A stretch of 64,000 nucleotides of DNA from a virus: IMG/VR virus record IMGVR_UViG_3300027659_000009, positions 32,001-96,000 of that record; one strand, given 5' to 3'. Positions within the stretch are counted from its first letter, which is position 1. Each line of letters begins with the position of its first letter. The notes below the pieces were generated by a model that did not search any database, had not been told where the DNA came from, and saw nothing but the letters and a program-made list of their open reading frames with translations. Below are positions 407-64,000 of the stretch, in pieces. Both the position numbers and the translations under genes were made by a program.

Positions 407-1741
407 ATGAAAATAATTATAACAGAACAACAATTAAGTAATATAGTCAATAAAAAAGAATGGGGCCGGAATGATGATGGGCCCAAAAAATTTAAAAAAA
501 TTAAAAAAAAAATTTATTGTCTTTGTGATGATGGTACATATAGTATTGAATGTTGTGAGACATATAAACAAGTACCATCAACAGAAAAACATGTGTCCGA
601 TTCTTTAAATGTTATTAAATATGCGTTAGACCAAGGATTAGATTTAAAACGTAGTGCTAGTGATAGTAAATATAGAACATCATGGTTTGATTTAATAGGT
701 GGAACTCAAAATCAAAGAAATGATATTTTAAATATTATACCTTCAGAATATAGAAATTATATACCAGAAATAGTATCAGGTGTAGACAAAAATTTTAAAT
801 TTGATGTTAGATTAATTGATATATTATCGGAAATTGAGAAAATAAGTGGGTTAGAATTAATTATTACAGGGGGTAGAGATTATTTCCATAAACCAAGAAA
901 TCCAAGTTCAAAACATAATACTGGAAAAGCAGTCGATTTTGTACCAATAGATGGTATGAACGCTAAAAATGATAAGAAAATAGAGGAGGCAGTATTACAG
1001 ATAATTTTAAGTGGTAGATATGGTATGGAAATTGGTTTAATAAATGAAAGGGTATACCCTTCTGGTCACGCAAGCGGACCTCATTTTCATATAAGTTTAG
1101 ACACTAATGTAGAGTATAGTAATTTTGGGTTTATTGATATGAATGGTATTTCTTCTGATACTAAAGTAAGTAGTGGTTTAAACTTAAAATGGGGAAATGG
1201 TGGTCCGTACCCCACAAAAATATTGGATAGAATTCATAGTATACAAGTTCAAAAAACAAAAAATATTGAAAAAGAAAAAGAAAAAATATCATTAGAGAAG
1301 ATAAATGCCGAAAAAGAAAATAATATGAAGTTAGAAAAAATAAGATTAGATAATTTATTTTCCACATTAAAATCGGATAATTCATATACATCTTATTGTG
1401 AAAACTTAATTAAAATAAAAAATGAAAACCCTAATGACGTAAGTAAAATACCTACAGAATTGTTAATTAAAAAAGGTGATATAAATGAAACTTTAACTTT
1501 TTGTGAGATGTTACTAGAACCCTTAGTAAAATTGGATATTATGCCGGCACAAAATGTATTAAGACCAAGTGTTATTGGGGTAGAAAAAATAGAAAAAGAC
1601 ATAGAAGAGTATAATAATTTATTAAATTTAAGTACCGTACAATTGATTAGGAAAAAAATAGAATATAAAAACGATCCGACAAAATCAAATTTAATTTTTA
1701 AGATAAATCAAATTTTAAAAGAAAGAATAAAATTAAAATAA
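407..1741 (+). CDS. peptidase M15-like (LAS) Zn cell-wall peptidase with MKIIITE leader
   Basis: SKHNTGKAVD (H-x6-D) and HFH motifs; leader MKIIITEQQL; ATATTTAT at 394-401. Confidence 0.7.
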   Translation: MKIIITEQQLSNIVNKKEWGRNDDGPKKFKKIKKKIYCLCDDGTYSIECCETYKQVPSTEKHVSDSLNVIKYALDQGLDLKRSASDSKYRTSWFDLIGGTQNQRNDILNIIPSEYRNYIPEIVSGVDKNFKFDVRLIDILSEIEKISGLELIITGGRDYFHKPRNPSSKHNTGKAVDFVPIDGMNAKNDKKIEEAVLQIILSGRYGMEIGLINERVYPSGHASGPHFHISLDTNVEYSNFGFIDMNGISSDTKVSSGLNLKWGNGGPYPTKILDRIHSIQVQKTKNIEKEKEKISLEKINAEKENNMKLEKIRLDNLFSTLKSDNSYTSYCENLIKIKNENPNDVSKIPTELLIKKGDINETLTFCEMLLEPLVKLDIMPAQNVLRPSVIGVEKIEKDIEEYNNLLNLSTVQLIRKKIEYKNDPTKSNLIFKINQILKERIKLK

Positions 1742-1811
1742 TTATAAATAATATACTGATTGAATCTACGTTTGTTCCTAAAGAACAGTAAATGATTAAA
1801 AATCACACTAT

Positions 1812-1840
1812 AAAAGGGTACCAAAAGGTACCTTTTTTGT
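1812..1840 (+). terminator. intrinsic terminator
   Basis: aaaagggtacc-aaaa-ggtacctttttt. Confidence 0.7.
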
Positions 1841-1860
1841 TTTATAACATATTTATTAAT

Positions 1861-2631
1861 ATGAAAATATCCTTTAATTCTTTATTAACTGAGACAGTAA
1901 TCGATAACTTAAATATAACTAAAATGGATAAGGCGATACTTAAGTCATTTCATTTACTAAGGAGTGAAAAAATTTATTCACCTAATGGTAAAGAATTTAA
2001 TTTAACTGTTGCAGATAAAATAGAGAAGGTAGAAGAAATGTTAAACACTGGTGACTACCAAAGACTATACACAGTATCTAAATTTTATGAAAAATACGGT
2101 AATTTTCTATTTAACGATATTCCAGATTTAATCGAGGATATAGATATAAATTTTTTAGAGGATCGTGAAGTGATAGAAGGTATTTTATATACATTCTTTT
2201 ATAAAAATTATAAAAATAAAGAAATCTATAGTTATAGGGGTAATTCTTGGGTTTCGGATACATTGATGCCACCTTATGAAGCATCGTTAGAGGAAACATT
2301 TGGTTTAACTATTTTTAATAATAGTGAGGTATATCCCCCTTGTTCATTATTTTTTGACACACTACCAAACAAAAATACTAATAAAATTGGGGTAGATTTT
2401 ATTATTCAGGATGATGAATTTGCGGTGTTTAATGGTGAAAAATATACATACAGTGGTGGTTATGATGAAATAATACATTCTGAATGGATTGACTTTAATT
2501 ACCCCAAAGATTTAAAGAATGAAACACTTAGAACATATTTCGATAAATTAATTAATAAAGTAGTTAACAAAATTATCAAACCAAACGACTATAAGTTTGA
2601 TGAATTTCTTAATTATATGAATCAACAATAA
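1861..2631 (+). CDS. hypothetical protein, leader family (likely start 1861)
   Basis: MKISFNSLLTE follows ATATTTAT at 1849-1856; the upstream ATG at 1792 reads through a terminator. Confidence 0.65.
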   Translation: MKISFNSLLTETVIDNLNITKMDKAILKSFHLLRSEKIYSPNGKEFNLTVADKIEKVEEMLNTGDYQRLYTVSKFYEKYGNFLFNDIPDLIEDIDINFLEDREVIEGILYTFFYKNYKNKEIYSYRGNSWVSDTLMPPYEASLEETFGLTIFNNSEVYPPCSLFFDTLPNKNTNKIGVDFIIQDDEFAVFNGEKYTYSGGYDEIIHSEWIDFNYPKDLKNETLRTYFDKLINKVVNKIIKPNDYKFDEFLNYMNQQ

Positions 2632-2642
2632 AAAAAAATAAA

Positions 2643-3248
2643 ATGTATACAAAAGAACAAATTGAAAAAGCAGTTAAATCAAAAGAATATGTATGGTTTG
2701 ACGGATCAAATGGAAAAGGATATGATGTAAATATAGTTGGTGTAAGAAATAACGCACCTAACATATACAAAAAAGTGACTAATGTATTTGATGATTATAT
2801 AACAATAACATTTAAAGACGAAAATGGTGTTCTACAATACTATTGTTGGTCCGCAACTACTGATCCAGGTAAAAAAGGTGTACAACAATTCCATAATAAA
2901 AATGGTGTTGCAAGATTAGTGCCGGGACAATATAGAGGAACATACGCATTATCATTACATCAAGGAAAATATGAGGCGGTTTGTCAAAGATTACAAGAAG
3001 TTACTGTGTGGAGAGATGGTAATAAAGATTTAACATTTGATGAAGTTAAACAAGATACAGGAATGTTTGGTATTAACATACATAAATCTGGTGTTGATTC
3101 TACTTGGGTGGAAAATTGGTCAGAAGGTTGTCAGGTTTTTAAAAAGGTAAAAGATTTTGATGTGTTTATAAAGATATGTAAGAAAGCCTCTAAAATTTGG
3201 GGTAATAAATTTACATACACATTAATAGAATCTAATGATATAAAATAA
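2643..3248 (+). CDS. L,D-transpeptidase (YkuD)-like protein
   Basis: GINIHKSG...NWSEGCQV His/Cys motif; TTDPG. Confidence 0.6.
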   Translation: MYTKEQIEKAVKSKEYVWFDGSNGKGYDVNIVGVRNNAPNIYKKVTNVFDDYITITFKDENGVLQYYCWSATTDPGKKGVQQFHNKNGVARLVPGQYRGTYALSLHQGKYEAVCQRLQEVTVWRDGNKDLTFDEVKQDTGMFGINIHKSGVDSTWVENWSEGCQVFKKVKDFDVFIKICKKASKIWGNKFTYTLIESNDIK

Positions 3249-3268: not shown

Positions 3269-4153
3269 ATGGAAATATTAAAGTTAGGATCAAAAGGTAA
3301 ATTGGTAGAAGATTTACAGAAGTACTTAAAAATAAAAGTCGATGGCGACTTTGGTAGTAAAACTGAAACTGCAGTAAAGAATTGGCAAAAAACAAATAAA
3401 TTAATTGCGGATGGGGTTGTTGGACAAAAAACATGGAATGCTATGGGGTTCCAAACAACAACGGATTTATCTGAAACATACCAATCATCAGTAAATGTCA
3501 CCATCAACCAAAAGTTTATGGATAAGGATGAATATTTAGTTGGACCAACTAAAAAAGAATATTTGTTTTTACATCATACCGCTGGTGGTAATGATCCGTA
3601 TGGAGTTGTTAAAATGTGGAATAATGATACTAGAGGTAGAATCGGAACTGAATTTGTTTTAGGTGGACAATCAGTATTTACAGGAAACGATATATACGAT
3701 GGGACGATAGTTCAATCATTTCCTGAAGGATCATATGGGTGGCATTTGGGTGATAATGGTTCAGAATATATGCACTCTCATTCAGTAGGTATTGAGGTAT
3801 GTAATTTCGGACCGATTAAAGATGGTAAAACATACACAGGACAAAAGGCAAATTTAGAACAAATTGTAGAGTTGAATGAATCTTTTAGGGGACATAAAAC
3901 TTGGCATCGTTATTCTGATAAACAACTTTTAGTTTTAAAAGATTTAATATTACACATTGCAAATCGTGATGATATAGATATAAGAAAAGGTTTGATAAGT
4001 GAAATTAAAAAAAGTGGTGTTAAAGGATTTGATTTTAATTCAGACGCGTATTACGGTAAGGTTAAAGGTATGTGGACGCATACTAACACTAGAAAGGATA
4101 AATCCGATATGTTCCCACAACAAGGATTAATTGATATGTTATTATCTTTATAA
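3269..4153 (+). CDS. N-acetylmuramoyl-L-alanine amidase (Amidase_2) with PG-binding domain; endolysin candidate
   Basis: LKLGSKG..VDGDFG..T..AVK.WQ..L.ADGVVG PG_binding_1 pattern; LHHTAG, SVGIE, THT..RKDKSD. Confidence 0.85.
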   Translation: MEILKLGSKGKLVEDLQKYLKIKVDGDFGSKTETAVKNWQKTNKLIADGVVGQKTWNAMGFQTTTDLSETYQSSVNVTINQKFMDKDEYLVGPTKKEYLFLHHTAGGNDPYGVVKMWNNDTRGRIGTEFVLGGQSVFTGNDIYDGTIVQSFPEGSYGWHLGDNGSEYMHSHSVGIEVCNFGPIKDGKTYTGQKANLEQIVELNESFRGHKTWHRYSDKQLLVLKDLILHIANRDDIDIRKGLISEIKKSGVKGFDFNSDAYYGKVKGMWTHTNTRKDKSDMFPQQGLIDMLLSL

Positions 4154-6153: not shown

Positions 6154-6171
6154 ATATTTATTAATAAATAT
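6154..6171. promoter_or_regulatory. palindromic pair of ATATTTAT motifs between divergent genes
   Basis: atatttattaataaatat is a perfect 18-bp palindrome between 6125(-) and 6179(+). Confidence 0.55.
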
Positions 6172-6178: not shown

Positions 6179-7090
6179 ATGAAAGTTATTGTGAATAGAA
6201 AACAATATAATAAAGTGATTAGTGAGACTAGAGGTTACTCTAAAGTTGTTGAAAATTGGGCGGATTATGTCACTGATGAAATATTGGGTAAGATATTAAA
6301 ACAGGATGTTAAAGAAGATGTTTATACAATGACTAATTTATCTAATAAATTAAAAGGTAAAAGTTTTTATGAAGAGTTTCCTGTTGATAGTCTGATATTA
6401 ACGGTTATCATAAATGAAGTGGATGGAGATGACTCATCAATCGATATGGAGTACTCACCTTATTTTACACAAATAATTGAAAATGACGATAACACATATA
6501 ATATATTAGATGCGGAATTCGATGTTGTAATGACATTACCTAAAAATAGAGAAGATATAGATATTAACACTCTATATTATTATTTTTCTTCATTTTTATC
6601 ACATGAATTTATGCATTTATATGAGTGGGTTAATAGGTACTTAGAGACACCTAAAGAAATAAAAGGGTGTGAGGGTATATATACTAATGGTGATATTAAT
6701 GGTGATGCGGTAGATAGAATAGGGTATATGATATACGTCAGCCAATGGTATGAGTTAAACTCTTTTATACAACAAGCGGGTACTATGATAACTAAAAGAA
6801 ACCCACAGGATCATAACGAATTTATGGTATATTTAAAAGAATTACCATTTTATAATTTTGCAGAAATGATGATTAACTATAAAGCGGATATTTATATAAA
6901 AGAGATTGAGTCACTAACAAAAGACAGAACTAATGAATTATCTAAAATCATACTTTGTTTTTATAGTGAAGAAAATAAATTACCTAAAATGAAATCTATA
7001 GATAAGTTTTTAAGTGATGTGGAAAAAAGATTTAGAGTAAGGGGTGAATATTTTAAAAAGAAATTACTAAGATTAGTGACTATAATATGA
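6179..7090 (+). CDS. zincin-like metalloprotease with leader
   Basis: SHEFMHLYE (HExxH) plus a downstream Glu; leader MKVIVNRKQYNKVISE. Confidence 0.6.
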   Translation: MKVIVNRKQYNKVISETRGYSKVVENWADYVTDEILGKILKQDVKEDVYTMTNLSNKLKGKSFYEEFPVDSLILTVIINEVDGDDSSIDMEYSPYFTQIIENDDNTYNILDAEFDVVMTLPKNREDIDINTLYYYFSSFLSHEFMHLYEWVNRYLETPKEIKGCEGIYTNGDINGDAVDRIGYMIYVSQWYELNSFIQQAGTMITKRNPQDHNEFMVYLKELPFYNFAEMMINYKADIYIKEIESLTKDRTNELSKIILCFYSEENKLPKMKSIDKFLSDVEKRFRVRGEYFKKKLLRLVTII

Positions 7091-10000
7091 AAAGAATAAT
7101 TTTAACAGAAAGTCAATATAAACGTTTAATCAAAAAAAACTTAAACGAACAAAAGATAGTATTCAGTAATCCAAAAGATGAATTTGATATTACAAATCAA
7201 ATGATGCAATTATTAATTCATTTGGAATTTTTTATAGATACTATTGCTAATAAATTTTTATATATTGATAAAGTAGAAAATGGTATAATATATATTGATT
7301 CTGCAAAATACACTAAAGAAGAAAAAGATTTAATAAATACAGAAATTGATAAATGGATTGTTTTCACAGACTCAACTAGAGATAAAAGAAGTGAAGATTT
7401 AACATATAACTTTGGTGTTGATAGTGATTGGGATGATCTTTACCCTGATGATGTTGTAGTTGTGGACAATGACAATAATAGTACAACTGATGACATTGAT
7501 TTAGATAATAGTGATGTAACTGATGATATTGACTTTGAAGATGATGGTACTACAGAAATAGATTATGATCCAACTAAAAAATATTCAAGAACAGAATATA
7601 TTGCTTTAGTTAAAGATAATGCTATTAAACAGATGAAAAAATATAAAATACCTGCGTCTATAACTATTGCTCAGGGAATAATTGAATCTGGTGATGGTAA
7701 TTCAGGTTTGGCTAGAAAGGGTAAAAATCATTTTGGTATAAAATGTCACAGTTGGACGGGTGAAAAAATATATTTAGATACTGGAGAAGTAAATAAAGAC
7801 GGGTCTAAACGTATAGACAAAAATGCTTGTTTTAGAAAATATGATAATATTTCACAATCATTTGATGATCACTCCAAATTCTTAGTAGATAATTCTAGAT
7901 ACGGTAGTTTATTTGGGTTAGGTACTACAGACTACAAAGGTTGGGCTGAGGGGTTACAAAAAGCGGGATATGCGACTAGTCCCACATACGCTAATCTTTT
8001 AATTAGTATTATTGAGAAACATAATTTAAATAAATTTGATAGTAATACTACTTCCCCTGTGGTTGGGTGTACTTTTACATCTGCAGAACTTAAATACGTC
8101 AGCGAAAACATAGTAACTAATGATGATAATCTAAATTTTAGATATTGGGTTAATCAAGACCCCAATCGATTAGAAAGGGTAAATAAAAAATTGTCGGACT
8201 GCGGATTAGTGAATCCAATATTAGATAAAAAAGGATCTATTAATGATTATTTAAGACATTCATTTGTTTTAATAGGTAAAGATTGGATTAATGCAAATAA
8301 ACCAAAAAGACCTGATGAGGAAGTAAAAGTTGAAAAGGATGAGGATAATAAAAGAGATTATAATAAAAACGGTAGATTAGATTTAAGTGAATTAACTAAA
8401 ATAATGAATGACACTAACGGGCGAACGGAATACCTATCTAAAGCAGCTGCAATCCAATTTAATAAAATGGTGGTAGATGCGAAGAAAGAAGGTGTAAATA
8501 TTACTATCTCTGACGCATATAGACTTTGTGGTTCCCCAAATGGTAAGGAAAACGTATTTACCCAATGGAAGGCATGGAAAATATATTTAGGAGGAGGTAA
8601 TGTTGCTGCAAAACCAAATCCAAGCAAAGCAGAAAAGTGGAATGAACTACCTGTTTACCCCAATGCCGGATGTGGTTATTGTACATCTAATCATGGATGG
8701 GGTAATGCAATAGATGTTGCGGACGGAAAGAAATGGATTAGGGAAAATGGTGAAAAATATGGTTGGTATTGGGGTGAGGCTCAATCAGAGTCATGGCACT
8801 TTACTTTTTGTGGGGAGGGTGTAGTTAACACACCAAAATACTGTAAAGGTAAAAAAAAGGTAGAAACTGAACTCCCTAAAAAAGTTGTAAAAACCGATTG
8901 TGAATTAACTACTGCAGAACTTAAATACGTCAGCGAAAACATACAAAACGATGATGATAATCTAAATTTTAGATATTGGGTTAATCAAGACCCCAATCGA
9001 TTAGAAAAGGTAAATAAAAAATTGTCGGACTGTGGTTTATCTGACCCTAATTTAAGTAAAAAAGGATCTATTAATGATTATTTAAAACATTCATTTGTTT
9101 TAATAGGTAAAGATTGGGTAAGAGCAAATAAACCAAAAAGACCTGATGAGGAGGAAGAGGTAGTTGTTGATGATGTGATATATGATAGTAGTGAACTATT
9201 AACTTGGAGTAAAAACGCTAAAAAAGACAGAGATGCCGGAATTATCAACCCAACATTAATTAGTGATATTATTAAAGCGTTGAAGGCTATTAATATGAGA
9301 GCACAGATAAGTTGGGCTAGAACTGGACATAATAAATATACGTCAGATGGGGATATTAGTAGACACTGGAGTGGTAATGCGGTAGATATATCTGTTATAG
9401 AAGGTATAGGTAACCCCAATGGAAATGGTAGCAATAAAGGTATTGGTAACGCCAATTTTATGAAAAATGGTGATAGATTGGTAACAGAATTAAAAAAATT
9501 AGGATACTCTTTTGGGGAATCAAATATTAAAGCATTTCTATGGAGAACAGATACAGGTGGTAATCACTGGAATCACGTACACGTATCCAACAAAAACAGA
9601 GTTAAAAAAAAAGTAGAAACTAAACTCCCTAAAAAAACTGAGGAACCTAAAAAATCTGAAGACGCACCAACAATTGTAGGTAATAGTGGATATATTTTGG
9701 GTAAACAAATAACTGTATCTAAAAATGGTCCAGCGGCTCATGCTACTAGGAAGTTAGGTAATTGGCAATCAGATAATGCGACTGACATATTCGGTAAACC
9801 TGGAACTACGGTGTATTCTATTACTAAGGGAACCGTATCTAAGATAGGTGGTAACGATAAGGATCATACTGGTAAAATATATGGTGGTAGTATTACAGTT
9901 AAAGGTAAAGATGGATACTGTGATATATTTTACACCCACTTACAAAAGATAAAGGTAGTAAAGGGGCAAGAAGTCACATTAGGTACACCATTGGCAGAAA

Positions 10001-10107
10001 TATCTTTGTGGCACACAAGCCCTACAGGGTCACACGTTCACGTTGGTTTGCCGTATAAGAAAAATTTAAATTCTCTTCTTAATTTAGATACCGGTAAAAT
10101 TAAATGA
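7087..10107 (+). CDS. multi-domain peptidoglycan hydrolase: GH73 glucosaminidase + M15B + M15-like + M23
   Basis: ASITIAQGIIESG/NHFGIKC/GYATSPTY (GH73); SNHGWGNAID..ESWHF (M15B); SRHWSGNAVD..HWNHVH; YTHL..HVHVG (M23). Confidence 0.85.
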   Translation: MKRIILTESQYKRLIKKNLNEQKIVFSNPKDEFDITNQMMQLLIHLEFFIDTIANKFLYIDKVENGIIYIDSAKYTKEEKDLINTEIDKWIVFTDSTRDKRSEDLTYNFGVDSDWDDLYPDDVVVVDNDNNSTTDDIDLDNSDVTDDIDFEDDGTTEIDYDPTKKYSRTEYIALVKDNAIKQMKKYKIPASITIAQGIIESGDGNSGLARKGKNHFGIKCHSWTGEKIYLDTGEVNKDGSKRIDKNACFRKYDNISQSFDDHSKFLVDNSRYGSLFGLGTTDYKGWAEGLQKAGYATSPTYANLLISIIEKHNLNKFDSNTTSPVVGCTFTSAELKYVSENIVTNDDNLNFRYWVNQDPNRLERVNKKLSDCGLVNPILDKKGSINDYLRHSFVLIGKDWINANKPKRPDEEVKVEKDEDNKRDYNKNGRLDLSELTKIMNDTNGRTEYLSKAAAIQFNKMVVDAKKEGVNITISDAYRLCGSPNGKENVFTQWKAWKIYLGGGNVAAKPNPSKAEKWNELPVYPNAGCGYCTSNHGWGNAIDVADGKKWIRENGEKYGWYWGEAQSESWHFTFCGEGVVNTPKYCKGKKKVETELPKKVVKTDCELTTAELKYVSENIQNDDDNLNFRYWVNQDPNRLEKVNKKLSDCGLSDPNLSKKGSINDYLKHSFVLIGKDWVRANKPKRPDEEEEVVVDDVIYDSSELLTWSKNAKKDRDAGIINPTLISDIIKALKAINMRAQISWARTGHNKYTSDGDISRHWSGNAVDISVIEGIGNPNGNGSNKGIGNANFMKNGDRLVTELKKLGYSFGESNIKAFLWRTDTGGNHWNHVHVSNKNRVKKKVETKLPKKTEEPKKSEDAPTIVGNSGYILGKQITVSKNGPAAHATRKLGNWQSDNATDIFGKPGTTVYSITKGTVSKIGGNDKDHTGKIYGGSITVKGKDGYCDIFYTHLQKIKVVKGQEVTLGTPLAEISLWHTSPTGSHVHVGLPYKKNLNSLLNLDTGKIK
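8081..9152 (+). repeat. near-identical ~240-nt direct repeat (8081-8321 and 8912-9152) within the hydrolase gene
   Basis: AELKYVSENI...NFRYWVNQDPNRLE...ANKPKRPDEE occurs twice with near nucleotide identity. Confidence 0.9.
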
Positions 10108-10962: not shown

Positions 10963-11976
10963 ATGGAAAATAAAGATATACACAATGATTTTATTGATTT
11001 CATCTTAAATGATGAAAAAGAAGTTTACGACAATGGTTTAAGTCACCCTAGTGTCGAATTTGAGGAACAAGAAAGAAAGGTTGTAGATACAATACTGGAA
11101 GAAAGATTAATCGACTATTACTGTTGTGGTAGATTCTATGGTAACGAAAAACTTGTTTGTGATAACATTAAAAAATTAAGTTCTTGGGTTTGTGATAGAG
11201 ATGGTTTAAACATGAAAGATGTTATAAACAAAATCTTAGATGAAATTAGAGAATGTGAGGATTTGAATCCCGCCTATCAAGAACCATTATCCTATTTATA
11301 TAGAACTAAAAAAGTAGAAGACATCATTAAAAAAACTGATGGGACATACTTCAGTGACAAATTAAAAAATTGTTGTTTGGTTAAGGATGAAAACGGACAG
11401 TGGGATTATGTTAACAAATTAAATTCTAACTACAGTGACGTTTCCGAATTACTAACTACCTTATTTCTAAAAGGTGGACAAATAGAAATGTTATCTAAAC
11501 TTAATGTCACAGAAATTAAAAATTATCTATTATCACTTAAAAAAGGTAATACTATTTATAAATTACTCACTAAATACTTTACCATTGACGAGTATAAAGA
11601 TTTCACATATAATACCAAAAATAATACTAAGGTTGGTGACTTTGTTGAATCCTTAACTAAGGACTTATTCATAAAAGATGGGTTTACTATTATTTTTGAA
11701 GGACAAAATGGTAACTTCATTGATATGATGTACGGTATCGATTTCATCGTAGAAAAAGAAGGTGAAATATTTTTAGTACAAGTAAAGAGTAAATCTAATG
11801 CGGCGTTATTAAGTTCTACTAAAAGACAATACAGATACATCGACATATTCGTAGGACAGTCTAAAGATTTAAATGGTATTAACTTATATTATAGAGAAGA
11901 TGAATTCAAAGAAAGATTTTTTGGGAAAGATGTACTCAAAAGTAATTTGGAATATTTAAAAATAAGATATAAGTAA
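10963..11976 (+). CDS. protein with C-terminal PD-(D/E)xK nuclease-like domain
   Basis: GDFVE...IDMMYGIDFIV...LVQVKS. Confidence 0.5.
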   Translation: MENKDIHNDFIDFILNDEKEVYDNGLSHPSVEFEEQERKVVDTILEERLIDYYCCGRFYGNEKLVCDNIKKLSSWVCDRDGLNMKDVINKILDEIRECEDLNPAYQEPLSYLYRTKKVEDIIKKTDGTYFSDKLKNCCLVKDENGQWDYVNKLNSNYSDVSELLTTLFLKGGQIEMLSKLNVTEIKNYLLSLKKGNTIYKLLTKYFTIDEYKDFTYNTKNNTKVGDFVESLTKDLFIKDGFTIIFEGQNGNFIDMMYGIDFIVEKEGEIFLVQVKSKSNAALLSSTKRQYRYIDIFVGQSKDLNGINLYYREDEFKERFFGKDVLKSNLEYLKIRYK

Positions 11977-11980
11977 AAAA

Positions 11981-12012
11981 TTTGTATATTTATAAATAAA
12001 ATAATATATTTG
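11981..12012 (+). promoter_or_regulatory. Bacteroidota sigmaA-type promoter
   Basis: TTTG-N20-TATATTTG. Confidence 0.7.
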
Positions 12013-12027
12013 TAAAAAAAAAAGATT

Positions 12028-12663
12028 ATGGGATGTGATGTTCATATGTTCGCAGAAAAATTTAACCCACAAAATAAAAAATGGGAAAAGGTGAGTAATA
12101 AGTTTTATGACTCATACGCACTAGACATTATAATAGAAAAAATAATACATAGTTTTGGTTTAACAGACAAAGAGGCAAAAGATATTATCTATAGATATTT
12201 GAGTGGTAAAAATAATCCTAAAAATAAAATGGAGGATTATATTATGAATAAATTTTTAAAACCATCAATTAGTGATGATCCAAATTTTCAATACTGGAAA
12301 GATGAAAGTAAATTCCCACACCCATATACGGATCAACCTTATAGTGGGAGAAATTATGATTTATTTGGTGCACTTGCAGGTGTTAGAAACCCATCTATGG
12401 AATTAATTGCGGATATGGATAGAGGTTTACCTGATGATGTTTCCGATGAACTATGTGATATATTTGATGAATGGGGTATGGATGCACATTCTGCAAACTA
12501 TCTTTATTTAGATGAGATAATGGGTAGTTCTTACTATAAGATGTCTGACAGTAAGTTAAATGACATTGGTGTGGGTACATATTTCTTTAGAGATGTTGTA
12601 GATGCATTGTTAAATATAGGTGATTCTAAGGATGTTAGATTAGTTTTTTGGTTTGATAATTAA
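12028..12663 (+). CDS. conserved phage hypothetical protein
   Basis: MGCDVH...GRNYDLFGALAGVR...RGLPDD...VRLVFWFDN pattern typical of a phage family. Confidence 0.65.
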   Translation: MGCDVHMFAEKFNPQNKKWEKVSNKFYDSYALDIIIEKIIHSFGLTDKEAKDIIYRYLSGKNNPKNKMEDYIMNKFLKPSISDDPNFQYWKDESKFPHPYTDQPYSGRNYDLFGALAGVRNPSMELIADMDRGLPDDVSDELCDIFDEWGMDAHSANYLYLDEIMGSSYYKMSDSKLNDIGVGTYFFRDVVDALLNIGDSKDVRLVFWFDN

Positions 12664-12744
12664 AAAAAATTATTTTTTCTAAAATATTTGACTTTTTAGG
12701 AAATTGTAACTATAATTGTAGTCAGAAATTAAAAAAGTTTTATT

Positions 12745-14166
12745 ATGAGCGACTCTCAAACAATTTTGGTAGAAAATAAAGGTAACGTAACATTAACTGA
12801 TAATGGTATGGTTACAAACAACACCACATTGAATAAATGTGTAGATTTGTTTTTCTCTATTGGATCGATGAGAGGAAAATCAAAAGATAAAGTAGTTAAA
12901 GTTTTCGAAGAAGCCTTTAATGAAAATCCTTTGGTTGCGTCTAAAGTCTTATTTTGGGCTAGAGACGTTAGAGGTGGGTCAGGTGAAAGAAAAGTCTTTA
13001 GAGACGTTATCTCATCCTTAATCACCAACTCACCACAAACTATTAGAAAGAACATTGCTTTAATACCAGAATTTGGTAGATGGGATGATGTTTTAGTTTT
13101 ATTTGGTACAGAGTTAGAGGACGATATGTATTCACTTATTAGAACGGCTTTAACAAACGGAGACGGTCTATGTGCCAAATGGATGCCGAGAAAAGGTATC
13201 ATCGCTAACGGACTTAGAAAATTGTTTAAGGTTACACCGAAACAATATCGAAAGATGTTAGTGGAACTAACTAATGTTGTGGAGACTAAGATGTGTGCTA
13301 GAGATTGGGAGTCAATTGATTATTCTAAACTTCCTTCTCTCGCATCATCTAGATATCAGAAGTCCTTTAAAAGAAACGATTTGACAAGGTATGAAGAATA
13401 TAAAACTGCCTTAGTCGATGGAACTGCAAAAGTTAATGCTGGTGCACTATACCCATATGACATCATAAAATCTATGAATATGGGTGGTGACGATGTTGTT
13501 AATGAGAAACAATGGGAATCATTACCTAATTGGATGGAAGGTTCTGAAGAAAGAATTTTACCAGTTGTTGATGTTTCAGGATCTATGGTTTGTGAGGTAG
13601 CGGGTAATCCTAACCTAACTTGTATGGATATTGCAATATCGTTAGGTATGTATATTTCAGAAAGAAATACGGGTAACTTTAAAGATGCGTTCATCACATT
13701 CTCTGAAAATCCTGAATTACAATACCTAAGAGGAAGCCTAAATGCAAGACTACACCAATTGAGGAGAGCAGAATGGGGTATGAGTACTAATTTAGAAAAA
13801 GTGTTCAGTCTAATTCTAACACAGGCAAAAAATAATAATATTACGGAGGAATTTATGCCGACTAAGATATTAATTTTGTCAGATATGCAATTCAATCAGG
13901 CGAACAGAAGGGATAGTTTGGGGGCACAATCTATGATTGAAGAAATGTATAGTGAGGCAGGGTATAAAGTACCTGATATCGTATACTGGAATTTAAATGC
14001 GAAAGGTGGGAATTTCCCAGTTGAGTTTGATAAAAATGGTACTGCATTAGTATCGGGATTCAGTCCGTCAATTCTTAAATCTATATTAGGTGGAAAGAAT
14101 ATGTCGCCAGAATCAATACTGATGGAAACTATTAATGATATACGATATAGTTTAGTTACTATATAA
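12745..14166 (+). CDS. DUF2828 / TROVE(Ro60)-like RNA-binding protein with C-terminal vWA domain
   Basis: ARDVRGGSGER, FGRWDD, AKWMPR; vWA MIDAS DVSGSM, LSDMQF, YWNL, SGFS. Confidence 0.8.
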   Translation: MSDSQTILVENKGNVTLTDNGMVTNNTTLNKCVDLFFSIGSMRGKSKDKVVKVFEEAFNENPLVASKVLFWARDVRGGSGERKVFRDVISSLITNSPQTIRKNIALIPEFGRWDDVLVLFGTELEDDMYSLIRTALTNGDGLCAKWMPRKGIIANGLRKLFKVTPKQYRKMLVELTNVVETKMCARDWESIDYSKLPSLASSRYQKSFKRNDLTRYEEYKTALVDGTAKVNAGALYPYDIIKSMNMGGDDVVNEKQWESLPNWMEGSEERILPVVDVSGSMVCEVAGNPNLTCMDIAISLGMYISERNTGNFKDAFITFSENPELQYLRGSLNARLHQLRRAEWGMSTNLEKVFSLILTQAKNNNITEEFMPTKILILSDMQFNQANRRDSLGAQSMIEEMYSEAGYKVPDIVYWNLNAKGGNFPVEFDKNGTALVSGFSPSILKSILGGKNMSPESILMETINDIRYSLVTI

Positions 14167-15961: not shown

Positions 15962-16945
15962 ATGAATAAAGATTATTATAAAATATTAGAAATTGAAAGA
16001 AACTCCACTGAAAATGATATAAAAAAGTCATATAGGAGGTTATCTAAACAGTATCATCCCGATGTAAATCCTGATAATAAAGAGGCGGAAGAAAAGTTTA
16101 AAGATATTGCCGAAGCGTATTCTATATTATCAGACAAAGAAAAAAAAGTAAACTATGATAGGTTTGGAACTGCCGATGGTAGAACTAACCCTTTCAGTGG
16201 TATGAACGATTTTGCATCTTTTTTTAACGGACAAAACAGAAGAAGAAAAGGTACTGATATTAGATTAAACGTTAAAATAAGTTTAGAGGAGGTATTTGAG
16301 GGTGTCCATAAAAAAATAAAATACCGTAAGTCAAATGGGTGTAATACTTGTAATAATACAGGTGGTGAGACAACACATTGTAATTCTTGTGGTGGTAGTG
16401 GTATGGTTTCTCAGATACAAAACACTCCGTTTGGTACGATGTCTAATGTGACTACTTGTCCCACATGTTCTGGATTAGGAGAGATGGTTATAAAAAAATG
16501 TGAAACTTGTTTTGGTTTGGGTACTAATACTGGTGAGGTGGAATTTGAATTCGACATTCCCAAAGGGATAATGGACGGAGAATCATTTAAAGTTAACGGT
16601 ATGGGTAATTCCATTAGAAAGGGAATTGATGGTGACTTAATATTAAATATTATTGAAACTCCACACGATAAATACAGAAGAGTTGGTAACGACATACATC
16701 AAAGAGTTAGTTTAGATTATAAAGATTTAGTGTTGGGTAACGATGAAATACAAGTAGATACTTTGGAAGGTAAAATAAAGTTTAAAATTAAGGAAGGTAC
16801 TAAAGTAGGTAGTATGTTAAGAATACCGAATAGAGGTTTATTTAGAAAAAATGAAAAGGGTGATATGTTAATTGAGGTATGGTTAGATATACCAGAGAAT
16901 GTCAGTGAAGAAGAAAAAGAAAAAATAAAAGACTTAAAAATTTGA
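15962..16945 (+). CDS. dnaJ: molecular chaperone DnaJ
   Basis: J-domain HPD motif, CxxCxGxG zinc-finger repeats, C-terminal domain. Confidence 0.95.
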
Positions 16946-20704: not shown

Positions 20705-21052
20705 ATGAATTATAGATATAAAAAAATAGATGAGAAATCAAAAATAATTACCGATGGATTGGGTTGTGGTATTGATGAAGGTATTAGAGAATTAATTGTT
20801 TTATTGAATTATAACAACATTGGGACAACACAATCTTGTTGGGGACATAAAAATTGGGGTGAAAATTTTCCTTGGTTTGATATTGATAGTAGTTATTATA
20901 AGAATATTGAAAATATTATTTTTGATTTGGAAATTGAAATTGAAAAACTCGGTGTTGATACAATACGATTTTATCCAAAGTGTAAAACATTAATAAAGGG
21001 TAGAAAAGAGTTCAACAAGTTAAAAGACAAACTAAAACAAATTAATAATTAA
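20705..21052 (+). CDS. hypothetical protein (ID..I..L...LN...I.T..SC.GH family)
   Basis: IDEGIRELIVLLN..IGTTQSCWGH motif. Confidence 0.6.
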   Translation: MNYRYKKIDEKSKIITDGLGCGIDEGIRELIVLLNYNNIGTTQSCWGHKNWGENFPWFDIDSSYYKNIENIIFDLEIEIEKLGVDTIRFYPKCKTLIKGRKEFNKLKDKLKQINN

Positions 21053-21374
21053 ATATAACTATTGTATCACCGTCCACTTCGATTTTATATTTATCTGGAG
21101 ATAAGTTAGTGTAATAGATTTTTAAATATTCTAACATGTCTCCTTTTTTTTGTGGGACATCTAATTGTCTTATTTTAGATTTTTTATCTTTTGGTTTTAC
21201 CCACTCTTCTATATTAGATTTTTTTGAATTTTTTAAGAAGTCTATTTCGTCAGTAAATAACCATTTTTTACCCTTACCACATTTTTTATAATAAACGGAA
21301 CCACCGATATCTCTAACTTGAAATACACATCTTTCTTTTTCTTCGTTTAAAATATCTAATAATTTTAATGACAT
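21042..21374 (-). CDS. hypothetical protein with leader
   Basis: MSLKLLDILNEE; ATATTTAT on minus strand at 21380-21387. Confidence 0.6.
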   Translation of the reverse strand: MSLKLLDILNEEKERCVFQVRDIGGSVYYKKCGKGKKWLFTDEIDFLKNSKKSNIEEWVKPKDKKSKIRQLDVPQKKGDMLEYLKIYYTNLSPDKYKIEVDGDTIVIFNY

Positions 21375-45733: not shown

Positions 45734-46165
45734 ATGAATAGAATAGTTAAATTAACAGAAGAAGACATTAAAAACATGGTTAAAAAAACTATGAATCAAA
45801 TTAATGTACAAGGTGATGAACATCACGATAGAGGAAATAGATATATGTTTTTCTCAAACCTACAACAAATGAGAAGACAATGTGATATATTATTAGATAT
45901 GGATCCAGAAATGGTTGAGGGTGTTTTAGAAAATGGACACGATTGGGCACAAGATCACATTGCAGAGGCAAAAAACAATATTGATCAAGTATTTGATTTC
46001 TTAATGAATGAAACTAAAAAGTATGGTATGGAGTTATCTATGAATATAGATGATAATGATATGATGAATGAAAAGTGGAGTAAAGAATATAAAAATTCCA
46101 TAGATTGTAATAATCCAAAAGGATTCTCTCAGAGAGCACATTGTCAAGGTCGTAAGAAAAGATAG
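45734..46165 (+). CDS. protein with leader and C-terminal IDCNNPKGFSQRAHC module
   Basis: MNRIVKLTEEDIKNMVKK; HDWAQDHI. Confidence 0.65.
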   Translation: MNRIVKLTEEDIKNMVKKTMNQINVQGDEHHDRGNRYMFFSNLQQMRRQCDILLDMDPEMVEGVLENGHDWAQDHIAEAKNNIDQVFDFLMNETKKYGMELSMNIDDNDMMNEKWSKEYKNSIDCNNPKGFSQRAHCQGRKKR

Positions 46166-46166: not shown

Positions 46167-46433
46167 ATGGATTTCCCGTTTGAAGAAAATAAAATAAATG
46201 GTTTTTATGTTCGTAAATTTTCTGATAATGTAGAGAATAGTGAATTGGTTTGGCATAGAGATAAAGAAGATAGGATTGTTGAGAGTGTTGGACATACAGA
46301 TTGGATGGTACAATTAGATAACCAACTACCTATCCCATTAACAGAAACAGTACTTATCCCAAAAGAAGTATATCACAGAGTAATTAAAGGTACTGGTGAA
46401 TTAACAGTTAAAATAAAAAAATTAAATGATTAA
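46167..46433 (+). CDS. small cupin-like protein
   Basis: WHRD.EDR...IPK..YHRVIKG. Confidence 0.65.
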   Translation: MDFPFEENKINGFYVRKFSDNVENSELVWHRDKEDRIVESVGHTDWMVQLDNQLPIPLTETVLIPKEVYHRVIKGTGELTVKIKKLND

Positions 46434-47232
46434 GTTAACTCAAATATTAAATGAATCTGAGGGTAATTTATCTTATTTAGATAATAAGGTTTATAGAAAA
46501 TACTTAAACGTTCTTAATAAAAAATATCCTGAACTTCAAAATGAGGTAAGGCAGTATATTTACCCTAAGATAGAGTTGGGGCAACAATTTAATGAAAGCA
46601 AACCCTATAACAAAATGTTTAATTTTTTTGGTACGGGTTTTTTCAATTTAGATGTTGACGATAAATGTGATTTAATTTTTCTTTTTATTTTAAATTTAGA
46701 CGTTAAAGATTTTTTAACTGAGGAATTAAATGTTGCTAATGGGTTATATTTTGTGACAATGGAAATGGCTCAGGAGGGTTATGATTATTACAGTGAAACT
46801 GAAAATCTTACGTGTGACGAATGTAACGGAAGGGGATCTGAACCTGTAACATGTTCAGATTGTGATGGGAAAGGCAAAATTGAGGATTCTGATGGTGAAA
46901 CAGAATCGTGTTATGAATGTGATGGTAGTGGTGAGAAAGAGGAAGAGTGTGATTATTGTGGTGGTGATGGTGAATACGAAGAGGAAATTCATAGTGTAAC
47001 TAAGATAATACATAAATGGTTTATGGTTATGACAGAGAATCCTGACTTCCCACAAGTTGAAGATGGTTTTGATTTTATTGAAAAATACGCTGATAAAGTG
47101 TATGTAATTACGGCAATCAAAGGTGATGAAGAAGTTGCCAGAGATGAGTCAAATTTACCTGACGACTTAGAGATTACGGATTATGATGTTGATGAACCAA
47201 ATAAATTCGGAATAAGATATATTATGCTTTGA
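46426..47232 (+). CDS. protein with DnaJ-type zinc finger and leader
   Basis: four CxxCxGxG repeats; MIKLTQILNE. Confidence 0.7.
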   Translation: MIKLTQILNESEGNLSYLDNKVYRKYLNVLNKKYPELQNEVRQYIYPKIELGQQFNESKPYNKMFNFFGTGFFNLDVDDKCDLIFLFILNLDVKDFLTEELNVANGLYFVTMEMAQEGYDYYSETENLTCDECNGRGSEPVTCSDCDGKGKIEDSDGETESCYECDGSGEKEEECDYCGGDGEYEEEIHSVTKIIHKWFMVMTENPDFPQVEDGFDFIEKYADKVYVITAIKGDEEVARDESNLPDDLEITDYDVDEPNKFGIRYIML

Positions 47233-59018: not shown

Positions 59019-59498
59019 ATGGAAAATTTAAATGAAGAACTGAAAAGAATCAAAAAATTAATGTTATTTGAGTCTTCTGAAGTTAAAGATGATACTGAAA
59101 CAGATACTGAGGAAACTGAAGACGTTACTAACGATTCTGATCCAGGTGATAAAAATTTTATAATTCATGATGATACTACTATAAAAGTTTCTGGTGGTTG
59201 GTTAAAGGATAATAAAAACAGAATTGGTTGTGTTAAAGTTGATGCTGGTTGGTTGGGTGGTACTTTTGCACAAGGCATAAAAAAATTAATCCAAAGGTTG
59301 AAAGGTAATGTTGTTGCAATGCCACAGAATGCAATTGATTTATACGATGAAATTGAATTAAGTAAGTCTGAGAAAGAAATTTTAATAAAAAAATGGAAAG
59401 ATAATGAGGTTTTTGTTAAAAAACAGAATGGTGCGGAAATTCATATAGGTAGATCAAAGGAATTAACAAACTTCTGTAAAAAAGAGTGGGCTAAATAA
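59019..59498 (+). CDS. hypothetical protein with leader
   Basis: MENLNEELKRIKKLMLFE. Confidence 0.65.
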   Translation: MENLNEELKRIKKLMLFESSEVKDDTETDTEETEDVTNDSDPGDKNFIIHDDTTIKVSGGWLKDNKNRIGCVKVDAGWLGGTFAQGIKKLIQRLKGNVVAMPQNAIDLYDEIELSKSEKEILIKKWKDNEVFVKKQNGAEIHIGRSKELTNFCKKEWAK

Positions 59499-59513: not shown

Positions 59514-60044
59514 ATGAAAGATATAATAAAAAAAATATTAAAAGAAGAGGTTGACCCTAAAAAAGATAAATTTGATAGATATATTATCAACACCCTTAAA
59601 AAGGAAGGTTTTAACCCATCAACAGACTACATTAAAGTTGTACAATTTTTAAAAAATAATTTTGCCTTAAGTGGTATGGATGCATTTGAGATGTTTCAAT
59701 TATACCTTAACAATTTCAAAAGTGATATTGAATATGGTGATTTAAATAGAACTGTCAATTATAGTAAAAAAATTAAATCCGCTAATAATAGTGCTAAAGA
59801 TTTAGTTTCTAGTAAAATACCGTTTAAAGGTAGTAATACACATGCGGAATACGTTGGTAACACATATGTAGTATATTCATATAATTGGTACCCTATATTT
59901 GTATTTAAGGATGGGCAATGGTTTGAGAATGAAAATAGATATTCAAGTTCAACCGCCAAACAAATGAGTCAACTGAGACCAAATGGGCAAGGTGAAATAC
60001 TTTACGCACCTAAGTCTAAATTAAGTGATATAATAAATAGTTAA
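59514..60044 (+). CDS. hypothetical protein with leader
   Basis: MKDIIKKILKEE; YVVYSY.WYP.F...W.EN...YS.ST.KQ. Confidence 0.65.
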   Translation: MKDIIKKILKEEVDPKKDKFDRYIINTLKKEGFNPSTDYIKVVQFLKNNFALSGMDAFEMFQLYLNNFKSDIEYGDLNRTVNYSKKIKSANNSAKDLVSSKIPFKGSNTHAEYVGNTYVVYSYNWYPIFVFKDGQWFENENRYSSSTAKQMSQLRPNGQGEILYAPKSKLSDIINS

Positions 60045-60045: not shown

Positions 60046-60864
60046 ATGGAAAACTTAAATGAAGAAATAAGTCGTATTAAATCTATTATGGGTGTGATTA
60101 CTGAATCGGAAAAATTTGGTATGAGTGACACATTTAAGAAGTTAAAAAAGACCGTTAAGGTTTTAAAAGAAAAGAATAAAGTATTAATATTATCTTGTTC
60201 TAATAGATATCAGTTTGATTCTAAAAATTTAGATATACCTAAATCTAAATTGTTGGCAATGTACATACAAGAAGAATTAGGGGATAAGGCAACTTTTATT
60301 GATATTACGGAATTAAAAATTTTACCTTGTGAAGGTAATGTTTCCAGATCAGAAGGTAACTCTTGTGGACTATTAAAGGCATTACTTAAAGATAAAACAA
60401 AAAACCCATCAGGAAATCACAGATGTTGGGTTAATATTAACGAACCGTCTGATGAACTTTGGAAAATCAGTAAGGAATTGTTTGAGTCTGACGCAGTTGT
60501 ATTCTTTTCATCTGTTAGATGGGGACAAACAAATATGTATTACCAAAACCTAATCGAAAGATTAACTTGGATTCAAAATAGACATACTACCTTAGGTGAA
60601 TCAAATCTTATTAAAGACATTGAGTCTGGATATATATGTGTTGGACAGAATTGGAATGGTGCAAATGTAATTGAAACACAAAAGGGTGTTCACCATTATT
60701 ATGGTTTTAAAGTGAATGAAGACTTATATTGGAACTGGCAATATACACAAGATGCTGATGATGAAACACAAAAATCTTATAAGGCATCACATAACAAATT
60801 TTTAAAGGACACTAAGATACCTGAAGAATTTGTCGAAGAGAATGAAAGCCCAAAGAAAAAATAA
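60046..60864 (+). CDS. flavodoxin-fold NAD(P)H-dependent FMN reductase-like protein with leader
   Basis: SNR..KS, I.PCEGNVS, HRCW, SDAVVF.SSVRWG..YQ.LIERL. Confidence 0.65.
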   Translation: MENLNEEISRIKSIMGVITESEKFGMSDTFKKLKKTVKVLKEKNKVLILSCSNRYQFDSKNLDIPKSKLLAMYIQEELGDKATFIDITELKILPCEGNVSRSEGNSCGLLKALLKDKTKNPSGNHRCWVNINEPSDELWKISKELFESDAVVFFSSVRWGQTNMYYQNLIERLTWIQNRHTTLGESNLIKDIESGYICVGQNWNGANVIETQKGVHHYYGFKVNEDLYWNWQYTQDADDETQKSYKASHNKFLKDTKIPEEFVEENESPKKK

Positions 60865-60871
60865 TTACAAC

Positions 60872-62059: not shown

Positions 62060-62079
62060 AATAACAAAAAACTAAAAAA

Positions 62080-62370: not shown

Positions 62371-62630
62371 ATTTATTTAAACAAAAAAAAATGGTTAAAC
62401 ATAAAGAAATGAAAGTGACAACTCACATTATGAATGAGATTACAAAATATACTAAAAAGTTGATTGAAAAAAAAAGGGACAACCCTAAATTGGTTGTAAA
62501 GGACAAACATATTATTATTAATCCTTATGTAAATTCGAAATATTAGTTTATTAGTATGTTGAAACAAACAATCCGTATGAGAAACATACGGATTTTTATG
62601 TTTAATGGCATATTTATATATAAAATAAAT

Positions 62631-63350
62631 ATGAAACGTAATATAGAACAACAAATTGATAAAATTAAATACCTTTTCGAATATGAAATGGGTGTAACTA
62701 AAAGTGAACAGAAAACATTACTTAGAGAATTTGATATTTACGATGACAAATTTGACACATTGATTGACGAACTTAAATCTGATGGTGGTGATAATATTAT
62801 GGCTGAAATTGGAATATCAAATGATAGTTTGAGTAGTACTGAGAATTTAACAAAAGAATTATCTGGTAAAAATATGTTGGAAGTTTGTGATATTAATGGA
62901 TATATTGAAAATAAAATTGGATCATCAATTAAAAACAAATTTTCCGGAAAGGTTGGTGAGGTTATTAACTTAATTAAAGAGTATATAGATAAATTTATGG
63001 TGTTTTTGAGTACATTAACTATTGAGGAACTAAAACAATTATTTAAAAATATAAAATCTAAAAAATCTGAGGCAGATGAACTAATGTTGTCAAATGGTAC
63101 CTCATCTGAAGTAGTTAGTGAAGGAATGATTAATGAATTTTTTGGTACTAGCATGACAGTTATCACTCTTTTTGGAGGATTTGCTATGCCGGCATTGGTA
63201 TTATCAATATTTACTATTGGTTTAGTAACATTAATTGGTTTATACTTACTTAAAATGATATTTTGTAAATTTAATATAGTTCTTCCATATCGCGGTAGAG
63301 CCTCATGTGGAAAAATGAGTTGGGGTAAAATGATAATTTCGTGTAATTGA
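62631..63350 (+). CDS. protein with leader and C-terminal TM (likely start 62631)
   Basis: MKRNIEQQIDKIKYLFEYE..LLRE; ATATTTAT at 62610. Confidence 0.6.
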   Translation: MKRNIEQQIDKIKYLFEYEMGVTKSEQKTLLREFDIYDDKFDTLIDELKSDGGDNIMAEIGISNDSLSSTENLTKELSGKNMLEVCDINGYIENKIGSSIKNKFSGKVGEVINLIKEYIDKFMVFLSTLTIEELKQLFKNIKSKKSEADELMLSNGTSSEVVSEGMINEFFGTSMTVITLFGGFAMPALVLSIFTIGLVTLIGLYLLKMIFCKFNIVLPYRGRASCGKMSWGKMIISCN

Positions 63351-63507
63351 AAATAATAATTATTGAGGAATTAATATATGAATCCCCACCTCATTCGTGA
63401 GTTGGATATATGGTTACTTAAATATTTATTATGTGCATTTAATATAAACATCGCCAGAACAAAGGGAGTTGGAGTTAGAAGTTTATTTTAGGGACAATGT
63501 AAATAAT

Positions 63508-63891
63508 ATGAATAGAATACTAATAAAAAATATAGTTAAAAAAATACTTAAAGAAGATGTAGAGAATAATCTTTATAAAAAGATTGCTACCATAGTAAAA
63601 CCACCATACGTCACAGATATGTATAAAATGGGTTTAACTAATAGTGAGATTAAAAAAGTACTCGAAGTTATATTTGGTATGGAGTTAAAAATCTTTGGAA
63701 TTGACAATGGTGGCGATGTGTTTGTTCACCATAACAAACCCGGTGGACCATGGATTTATTACGAAATGTTTGATGGTAGCGGTTGGGAAATTGTGGAAAG
63801 AAACAAACAAGGTATGATAATTAGAAAATACGGTTTCGATGGTGATGATTATTATGATCAAAAATTAAAACCAACCAAATATTCCACATAG
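63508..63891 (+). CDS. stand-alone PPY-module protein with leader
   Basis: IVKKILKED then KI...VKPPY...MG...VL..IFG, homologous to the modules of 49402. Confidence 0.65.
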   Translation: MNRILIKNIVKKILKEDVENNLYKKIATIVKPPYVTDMYKMGLTNSEIKKVLEVIFGMELKIFGIDNGGDVFVHHNKPGGPWIYYEMFDGSGWEIVERNKQGMIIRKYGFDGDDYYDQKLKPTKYST

Positions 63892-63910
63892 ATTAAAGTA
63901 ATGTAAGATT

Positions 63911-64000
63911 ATGAATGGGAAAAAAATAATTAAATTAACTGAATCTGATTTACTTAGAATAGTAAAGAGGGTTATTAATGAAAGTCAATTACTTGTTGAA
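63911..64000 (+). CDS. partial CDS with leader, runs off the window
   Basis: MNGKKIIKLTESDLLRIVKRVINESQLLVE. Confidence 0.6.
   Translation, partial: MNGKKIIKLTESDLLRIVKRVINESQLLVE

Follow-up and report, generated by a model that had tools for sequence, protein, structure and literature searches.

Exchangeable N-terminal tags of a large T4-type phage as candidate prohead-targeting propeptides

In bacteriophage T4, propeptides of 10–19 residues target diverse proteins to the prohead core and are removed by the protease gp21 (PMC9026906, PMC3012670). These capsid targeting sequences (CTS) occur on IPI, IPII, IPIII, and Alt, with comparable propeptides on gp24, gp22, gp21, gp67, and gp68. A 64,000-nucleotide stretch of viral DNA (hereafter the window), corresponding to positions 32,001–96,000 of the single 166,352-bp viral record IMGVR_UViG_3300027659_000009 in IMG/VR, encodes many otherwise unrelated proteins that begin with a shared leader, or tag, closing in hydrophobic-x-Glu. 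Four classes of this leader are distinguished in the record, which stems from an uncultured T4-type phage of Bacteroidota, and it is more likely than not that they are prohead-targeting propeptides of the T4 CTS kind.

The two systems have several features in common. Both have a T4-type head and a gp21-family S77 protease, and in both, a short N-terminal peptide ending in hydrophobic-x-Glu is common to unrelated proteins. The cargo set varies between related phages, and the genes are late (putatively so in the present phage) and located near or inside the head module. In the T4 record NC_000866, IPII and IPIII begin with MKTYQEFIAE, gp24 with MAKINELLRE, and Alt with MELITELFDE, while gp22 and gp21 have similar starts. 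Over the roughly 10 residues compared, these head-targeted starts follow the pattern acidic/polar, two hydrophobic, any residue, Glu, which is that of class D and of the ends of classes A–C. The agreement extends to every sequence-level criterion tested, and the tag system would work like the CTS. The scale, the four swappable and longer tags, and the near-invariance differ from the T4 system: about half a dozen genes are tagged in T4 versus at least 47 in half a genome here, the four interchangeable classes reach up to 23 residues and are known from sequence alone, and class A hardly varies over thousands of metagenomic protein clusters.

The jumbo phages related to phiKZ offer a second comparison. 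In phiKZ, 201phi2-1, and SPN3US, a T4-related protease is reported to process dozens of head-internal proteins, cleaving behind a Glu (PMC9026906, PMC7411985, PMC5694885). Their cleavage sites consist of the Glu and very few other determinants (PMC9026906), whereas a discrete, exchangeable module is found here. The lineage differs as well, since the present phage has a T4-type gp23 head. Encapsulin cargo-loading peptides are short terminal peptides that bring diverse cargo inside an HK97-fold shell. They usually sit at the C-terminus, make direct contact with the shell protein, and stay on the cargo, in a system that has neither virus nor scaffold nor protease. As in encapsulins, a short terminal peptide would address diverse cargo in the present phage, but it is N-terminal and accompanied by a phage scaffold and protease.

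No published description of these tags was found. Searches with the leader motif strings gave nothing relevant in the literature, and “capsid targeting sequence” combined with jumbo or metagenomic phages gave only a reference-list citation. A 24-residue leader and a whole 128-amino-acid (aa) tagged protein had no tblastn match in 50,697 GenBank phage records, which yielded no cultured carrier of class A tags, and megablast of 12.5 kb of the window also returned no match. All four classes are missing from Tenacibaculum phage PTm1, a T4-type jumbo phage of Flavobacteriia. The cultured Flavobacterium phage immuto (NC_055915) likewise lacks them and has recurrent N-termini of its own that end in hydrophobic-x-Glu (e.g., at record positions 123355, 125241, 102294, and 111675); these fall into three or more families, each with three to five genes, and two members lie in the head module.

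Leader classes and their number

The leaders sort into four classes that share a core composed of a hydrophobic pair, any residue, and Glu. In class A, the long form is MKKIIRLTESDLxRIVKRVIKE and the short form is MKIxLTESQYKRLLxE. The leaders of classes B, C, and D read MNLQEEIxRIREMMG, MKNLIKRILKEE, and MKFSDILKE, respectively. The sequence-only reading of the window had proposed three leader types; the shared leader stands, while four classes with a common core describe it better.

The record is about 51% complete by CheckV, which corresponds to a genome of roughly 300 kb, and all gene counts derived from it are lower bounds. Class profiles were built from the N-termini of the genome itself and run over all six-frame open reading frames (ORFs) of the record. 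This genome-wide profile run, which the sequence-only reading had suggested as a check, recovers 47 leader genes (26 of class A, eight of class B, eight of class C, and five of class D), of which the window holds 16. This total is a minimum and equals 21% of the called genes, or about a fifth. All 47 matches begin 0–6 residues past the Met at the ORF start, and the six-frame ORFs of the record yield no significant internal match; a single class C match is internal and marginal (E 0.095). The E-values for membership are circular because the profile seeds come from the same genome, whereas the absence of internal matches and the matches outside the genome are not. An [LI]-x-E motif lies within about 37 residues of the start in 47 of 47 leader genes, compared with 29% of internal 25-residue windows.

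The shared tags are a real observation, far beyond chance. All 19 coordinates given by the sequence-only reading for leader genes are ATG codons that open the quoted peptides; 15 of these genes are recovered by the profiles, and the remaining four (6179, 62631, 1861, and 43370) are weaker look-alikes. The claim that a common leader stands on unrelated proteins is borne out, as the matches are all N-terminal and the cargo of the 19 window proteins falls into 18 BLASTP clusters. Genome-wide, the cargo of 51 tagged proteins falls into 49 clusters. A charge bias was looked for in the cargo and none was found; the cargo is not skewed to basic proteins. DnaJ, thioredoxin, and IMPDH, named as lacking the leader, are all three without it.

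Secretion signals are rejected as an identity for the leaders. These are charged amphipathic helices, acidic throughout, and lack the hydrophobic core of at least 10 residues that follows a basic N-terminus in Sec or lipoprotein signal peptides. True signal peptides are present on other genes of this genome. It is also extremely improbable that a modifying enzyme, such as a radical-SAM/SPASM maturase, recognizes the leader in the manner known from ribosomally synthesized and post-translationally modified peptides. The Radical_SAM family (PF04055) has no match in the record or in five complete leader-bearing relatives, while 14 of 14 control genomes were matched, and a radical-SAM maturase tag is rejected on this search.

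A portable peptide with a fixed boundary

A word search with a 96-aa tagged protein retrieves many metagenomic proteins that are 83–96% identical to it in the first quarter only. When IMG/VR was scanned with an exact DNA pattern for codons 1–11 of the class A long form, at least 119 stretches were obtained. Residues 12–22 lie outside this search pattern; in the 101 unique complete proteins among the matches listed, they stay at 1.7–4.2 bits of information, most above 2.8, and position 22 is Glu in 92 of the 101. Past E22, the information in these listed proteins drops to 1.3, 0.85, and then below 0.7 bits, and the cargo behind their long class A tag forms 80 clusters. A class A profile run against 1.84 billion cluster representatives matches 4,477 of them at E ≤0.001; at least one of these is a repeat protein matched falsely. 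Among the best 150 representatives, 142 have a match that begins within the first 15 residues.

The tags are exchanged on the same cargo. Three orthologous proteins whose cargo is 78–79% identical carry a class B tag in the present phage, the short class A form on one contig, and the long class A form on another, and their identity starts exactly at E|GLHDTSWEND. A second ortholog pair has the long and the short class A form on the same cargo, with the junction directly after I-x-E. Related cargos show further swaps between classes D and A and between classes A and C. Because orthologous cargo carries different classes joined at the same Glu, the tag classes appear to be functionally equivalent, and the unit appears to end at hydrophobic-x-Glu. 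The exchange of tags on orthologous cargo is the strongest evidence for a discrete, portable module.

The conserved entity is the peptide. At every conserved position of the tag, synonymous codons follow background usage, and codon identity within the leader is 0.51 at the third position versus 0.71 at the first and second positions. Synonymous codons vary freely, and selection therefore acts on the peptide rather than on DNA or RNA. These data bear on the proposal that the shared start is a nucleic-acid feature and the peptide a by-product. Such a feature could be a translation-initiation region, a recombination cassette, or an mRNA element such as a site that the ribosomal protein bS21 reads. 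One gene pair, at genome positions 105022 and 105691, does have near-identical leader DNA. Bacteroidota lack Shine–Dalgarno sites, and the phage encodes bS21, a protein proposed to favor late phage mRNAs (PMC9723584). However, leader copies differ at most wobble sites, and the four peptide classes have a residue pattern in common rather than a DNA sequence. A DNA cassette or bS21-read element is largely refuted on the codon evidence and is rejected here as very improbable.

In an AlphaFold2 model of the 96-aa member, the leader forms a low-confidence helix (residues 9–25) set apart from a confident small domain. The modeled helix is amphipathic with a broad hydrophobic face, as would suit an uncleaved docking or oligomerization helix that attaches its carrier to some hub besides the prohead core, e.g., the capsid exterior, appendages of the neck or tail, a membrane, or other tagged proteins. 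Tail fibers and spikes usually have conserved N-terminal anchors on variable C-terminal parts, and late-type promoters would fit any virion protein. However, conservation stops at hydrophobic-x-Glu and cargo identity starts directly after it, and an anchor helix needs neither. Different tag classes serve the same cargo, the cargo is mostly small, acidic, or enzymatic rather than fiber-like, and the leader pattern agrees with the T4 propeptides. Docking without cleavage is thus rather unlikely.

The fused ORFs of the database proteins P0069, P0074, and P0080 hold two or three copies of the class A leader. Each internal copy directly follows hydrophobic-x-Glu|Asn. The head protease could cut them as true polyproteins, or neighboring genes may have fused, and the internal copies would suit a binding-and-cutting module better than a signal that depends on a free N-terminus.

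Tagged genes can also be strung together. An 82.7-kb contig of 34% GC contains a tandem array of eight to ten genes, all with the long class A tag (L010:6570–10805 and L011:3065–8188), and one two-gene unit of the array is duplicated in L011. The interval that separates the array from the genes behind it (L010, about 11,400–13,600) contains only short ORFs of atypical composition and may hold RNA genes.

Association with head genes and proposed function

A T4-type head module is located at the far end of the record, as annotated with PHROGs and Pfam. It comprises a large terminase, Portal_T4 (2e-76), Peptidase_S77 (9e-25; L006:12214–12903), and a Gp23-family major capsid protein (3e-72), in addition to 255-aa and 145-aa proteins without known family and a highly acidic, scaffold-like protein of 477 aa. 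The nearest named relatives of the capsid protein are from Rhodothermus phage RM378 and Flavobacterium phage immuto.

The leader genes appear to be co-regulated with this module. Two mutually exclusive upstream motifs, the host-type TAnnTTTG and the phage-specific ATATTTAT[AT], divide the genome. TAnnTTTG is the −7 box of the Bacteroidota sigma-A. It precedes enzymes and a sigma-70-family gene of the phage and is found, e.g., upstream of window positions 30994 and 38092. ATATTTAT is ten-fold enriched upstream of genes and precedes the portal, protease, scaffold, and other structural genes, with the major capsid protein gene in the same type of unit. Counted by transcription unit, leader genes are distributed 38:1 between the ATATTTAT and TAnnTTTG types and other genes 57:75 (odds ratio 50, p 1e-10). 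A per-gene test for ATATTTAT within 60 nt of each gene is not significant (p 0.43), because the tagged genes sit in tandem arrays; the comparison by transcription unit is the decisive one. It is proposed that ATATTTAT is a late promoter read by a phage sigma factor. Of note, the sigma-70-family gene (regions r1.2, r2, and r4; L002:9758–10555) itself belongs to a TAnnTTTG unit, and its product may read the ATATTTAT class.

Position and gene content link the tags to the head as well. In four relatives (L007, L160, L161, and L167), a tagged gene is found between the portal and capsid genes, although its exact position varies; the T4 core genes 67 and 68 occupy the same portal-to-capsid interval. 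The S77 protease is present in 22 of 35 tag-bearing viral contigs and in seven of the eight that are at least 90% complete. Five complete relatives carry 8–24 class A genes each. The cleavage motif is also kept in the probable known substrates of the protease: the N-terminal region of the capsid protein has L-x-E sites near the aligned mature end of T4 gp23, and the scaffold keeps invariant L/I-x-E-S sites. Tagged cargo of the murein type includes a 1,006-aa triple hydrolase, a tail-lysozyme/SH3 protein, and two PG_binding_1 proteins, while the ordinary endolysin is untagged. A structure prediction of the scaffold with the first 35 residues of a class A protein gave a score of 0.00; it was run without controls and weighs neither way.

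On the basis of these associations, the leader would be an amphipathic helix of 9–23 residues, made late in infection, through which its carrier gains affinity for the scaffold core of a T4-type prohead under assembly. The S77 (gp21-type) protease would then cut after the closing hydrophobic-x-Glu, freeing the cargo inside the head. This cargo would be a large and fast-changing set of murein hydrolases, small acidic proteins, and many proteins without known function. Some of this set probably enters the host together with the DNA, while some of the small acidic proteins with a tag may serve as accessories of the core or scaffold and be degraded, as T4 gp67 and gp68 are. The sequences document the tag with its position, exact boundary, interchange, conservation as a peptide, and genomic associations; core binding, cleavage, residence in the virion, and ejection of the tagged proteins are what we infer from this pattern, and injection is the weakest step.

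Several observations weigh against prohead targeting. The support for packaging and cleavage of the tagged proteins is at the sequence level, the tags have no significant homology to the T4 CTS beyond the shared pattern, and [LI]-x-E is common in this AT-rich proteome (29% of 25-residue windows, as given above). The late status of ATATTTAT is assigned from the genes that it precedes. A cargo of 47 or more genes (21% of those called) is far above the handful of T4. The class A tag is longer and far more conserved than a T4 CTS requires, suggesting a specific, conserved receptor. The co-occurrence with S77 is confounded by shared ancestry; one 93%-complete relative has no S77 match, and PTm1 and immuto have S77 yet lack class A. 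Finally, a Clp/Hsp100-type ATPase co-occurs with the tags as well as S77 does.

This ATPase raises the alternative that the leader is a recognition tag for a phage Clp/Hsp100-type AAA+ unfoldase or for another conserved chaperone such as DnaJ. Such a tag would mark late proteins for unfolding, remodeling, translocation, or timed removal, instead of or upstream of head targeting. An 821-aa ClpC-like protein (Clp_N, AAA, UVR, AAA_2, and ClpB_D2-small) is encoded outside the window on the minus strand, behind ATATTTAT (L005:8121–10586). An AAA_2 protein is found in all seven near-complete leader-bearing relatives tested and is absent from immuto, PTm1, and T4, all of which lack class A; in the relatives, the search for the Clp_N domain was negative and that for AAA_2 positive. 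AAA+ proteins of T4-type jumbo phages have been speculated by Iyer et al. to move proteins into heads (PMC7824862). However, the co-occurrence lies within a single lineage and hence is not independent evidence, and immuto has analogous tags without an AAA_2 gene. Known Clp tags are short and degenerate and need no closing Glu or fixed junction, the internal leader copies of the fused proteins are ill-suited to a free-N-terminus degron, and the tagged genes are located in head modules. Recognition by an unfoldase or chaperone is, on this balance, unlikely. Of note, no ClpP gene was noticed.

The capsid-targeting and protease-maturation role proposed by the sequence-only reading is thus upheld in part. 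The head type, the sharp end of the tag, its interchange, the apparent co-regulation, and the position in head modules of relatives are in its favor, while the lineage-conserved Clp/Hsp100 protein co-occurs equally well. If the tags are head-loading signals, a fifth of the phage genes encode proteins that travel inside the particle, and the abundant Bacteroidota phages of lakes and oceans would have hundreds of candidate first-minute takeover and anti-defense factors among their hypothetical genes. It is possible, though short of probable, that a T4-type jumbo phage lineage of Bacteroidota loads approximately 50–100 proteins per genome, about a fifth of the proteome, via interchangeable tags and delivers them with the DNA, drawing on a cargo pool of thousands of families; no larger or more modular virion cargo repertoire would then be known. 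The precise portable boundary (tag, Glu, cargo) is a directly testable rule, and the tag offers a handle for loading foreign proteins into capsids, as has been done with the T4 CTS. The interchangeability of tags on the same cargo also raises a question that T4 never answered, namely, what in the prohead core reads the tag.

Tagged genes of the window and the phage lineage

The tagged genes, the weaker look-alikes, and one untagged gene for contrast are listed below in window coordinates.

407–1741, plus strand: leader gene, class A (weak), 444 aa; profile E 0.0012 at residue 1; ATATTTAT at 394–401; no Pfam family
1861–2631, plus strand: leader-like, class D-like (weak), 256 aa; below the class D profile; ATATTTAT at 1849–1856, 12 nt upstream, supports the internal start
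3269–4153, plus strand: untagged endolysin-type gene for contrast, PG_binding_1 and Amidase_2 by Pfam; TAnnTTTG-type unit
6179–7090, plus strand: leader-like, class A-like (weak), 303 aa; non-significant profile match; ATATTTAT at 6154–6161
7087–10107, plus strand: leader gene, class A, 1006 aa, triple murein hydrolase (Glucosaminidase, VanY, Peptidase_M23); E 2e-8 at residue 1
21042–21374, minus strand: leader gene, class D, 110 aa; E 0.004, N-terminal; ATATTTAT at 21380–21387 on the minus strand
35953–36243, plus strand: class D-like start with a hydrophobic segment behind it, 96 aa, heading the array at 36245; ATATTTAT at 35891–35898; no Pfam family; absent from the list of the sequence-only reading
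36245–36859, plus strand: leader gene, class A, 204 aa, acidic cargo (net charge −19); E 8.5e-10
36861–37433, plus strand: leader gene, class A, 190 aa; E 2.7e-8
37430–37852, plus strand: leader gene, class A, 140 aa; E 1.1e-8
42368–43369, plus strand: leader gene, class D, 333 aa, acidic cargo; E 6e-4; ATATTTAT at 42338–42345
43370–44452, plus strand: leader-like (weak), 360 aa, distant paralogue of 42368 (cargo 26% identical)
44463–45710, plus strand: leader gene, class A (weak), 415 aa; E 0.056; ATATTTAT at 44433–44440; its C-terminal domain is found elsewhere behind class C tags
45734–46165, plus strand: leader gene, class A, 143 aa; E 2.8e-7
46426–47232, plus strand: leader gene, class D, 268 aa, Cys-rich and zinc-finger-like; E 0.007; DnaJ_CXXCXGXG at E 1.3e-5, below the Pfam cut-off
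59019–59498, plus strand: leader gene, class B, 159 aa; E 3.5e-10
59514–60044, plus strand: leader gene, class C, 176 aa; E 1.8e-7
60046–60864, plus strand: leader gene, class B, 272 aa; E 3.6e-10
62631–63350, plus strand: leader-like, class B-like (weak), 239 aa; below the class B profile; ATATTTAT at 62610–62617, 21 nt upstream, supports the internal start
63508–63891, plus strand: leader gene, class C, 127 aa; E 7e-5
63911–64000, plus strand: leader gene, class A, 470 aa, extending 1,323 bases past the window; E 1.9e-9; weak PG_binding_1; orthologous cargo elsewhere carries two tag sub-types

The product of 35953–36243 has a predicted membrane-spanning segment directly after the class D-like peptide. 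Cleavage behind the tag would mean that a membrane protein is synthesized with a propeptide of the head type.

The record has 29.7% GC, and one strand carries 194 of its 223 simple gene calls. A full-length DnaJ gene is located at window positions 15962–16945. The bS21 gene lies on the minus strand at 42105–42293 (Ribosomal_S21, 7e-12) and adjoins a ferritin gene on the same strand (41606–42103). In this record, it is about 80 kb away from the head module, while in relatives, the reverse-strand bS21 gene is found within the head module between two hypothetical genes (e.g., L158:4607–4792). Chen et al. 2022 (PMC9723584) describe bS21-encoding phages of freshwater Bacteroidetes with genomes of up to 331 kb and predicted Flavobacteriia hosts. 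Judging from the T4-type head module and the reverse-strand bS21 arrangement, the present phage looks like a member of the lineage described in that study. In the passages searched, “N-terminal” concerns bS21 alone, and the tags are apparently not described.

The head genes of relatives carry intein or LAGLIDADG insertions. In L007, the 1,056-aa terminase (L007:4063–7233) and the 603-aa S77 protease (L007:11236–13047) both have intein or LAGLIDADG matches in Pfam. The portal genes at L161:374–3469 (1,031 aa) and L163:8401–11982 (1,193 aa) are likewise enlarged, as judged by their length.

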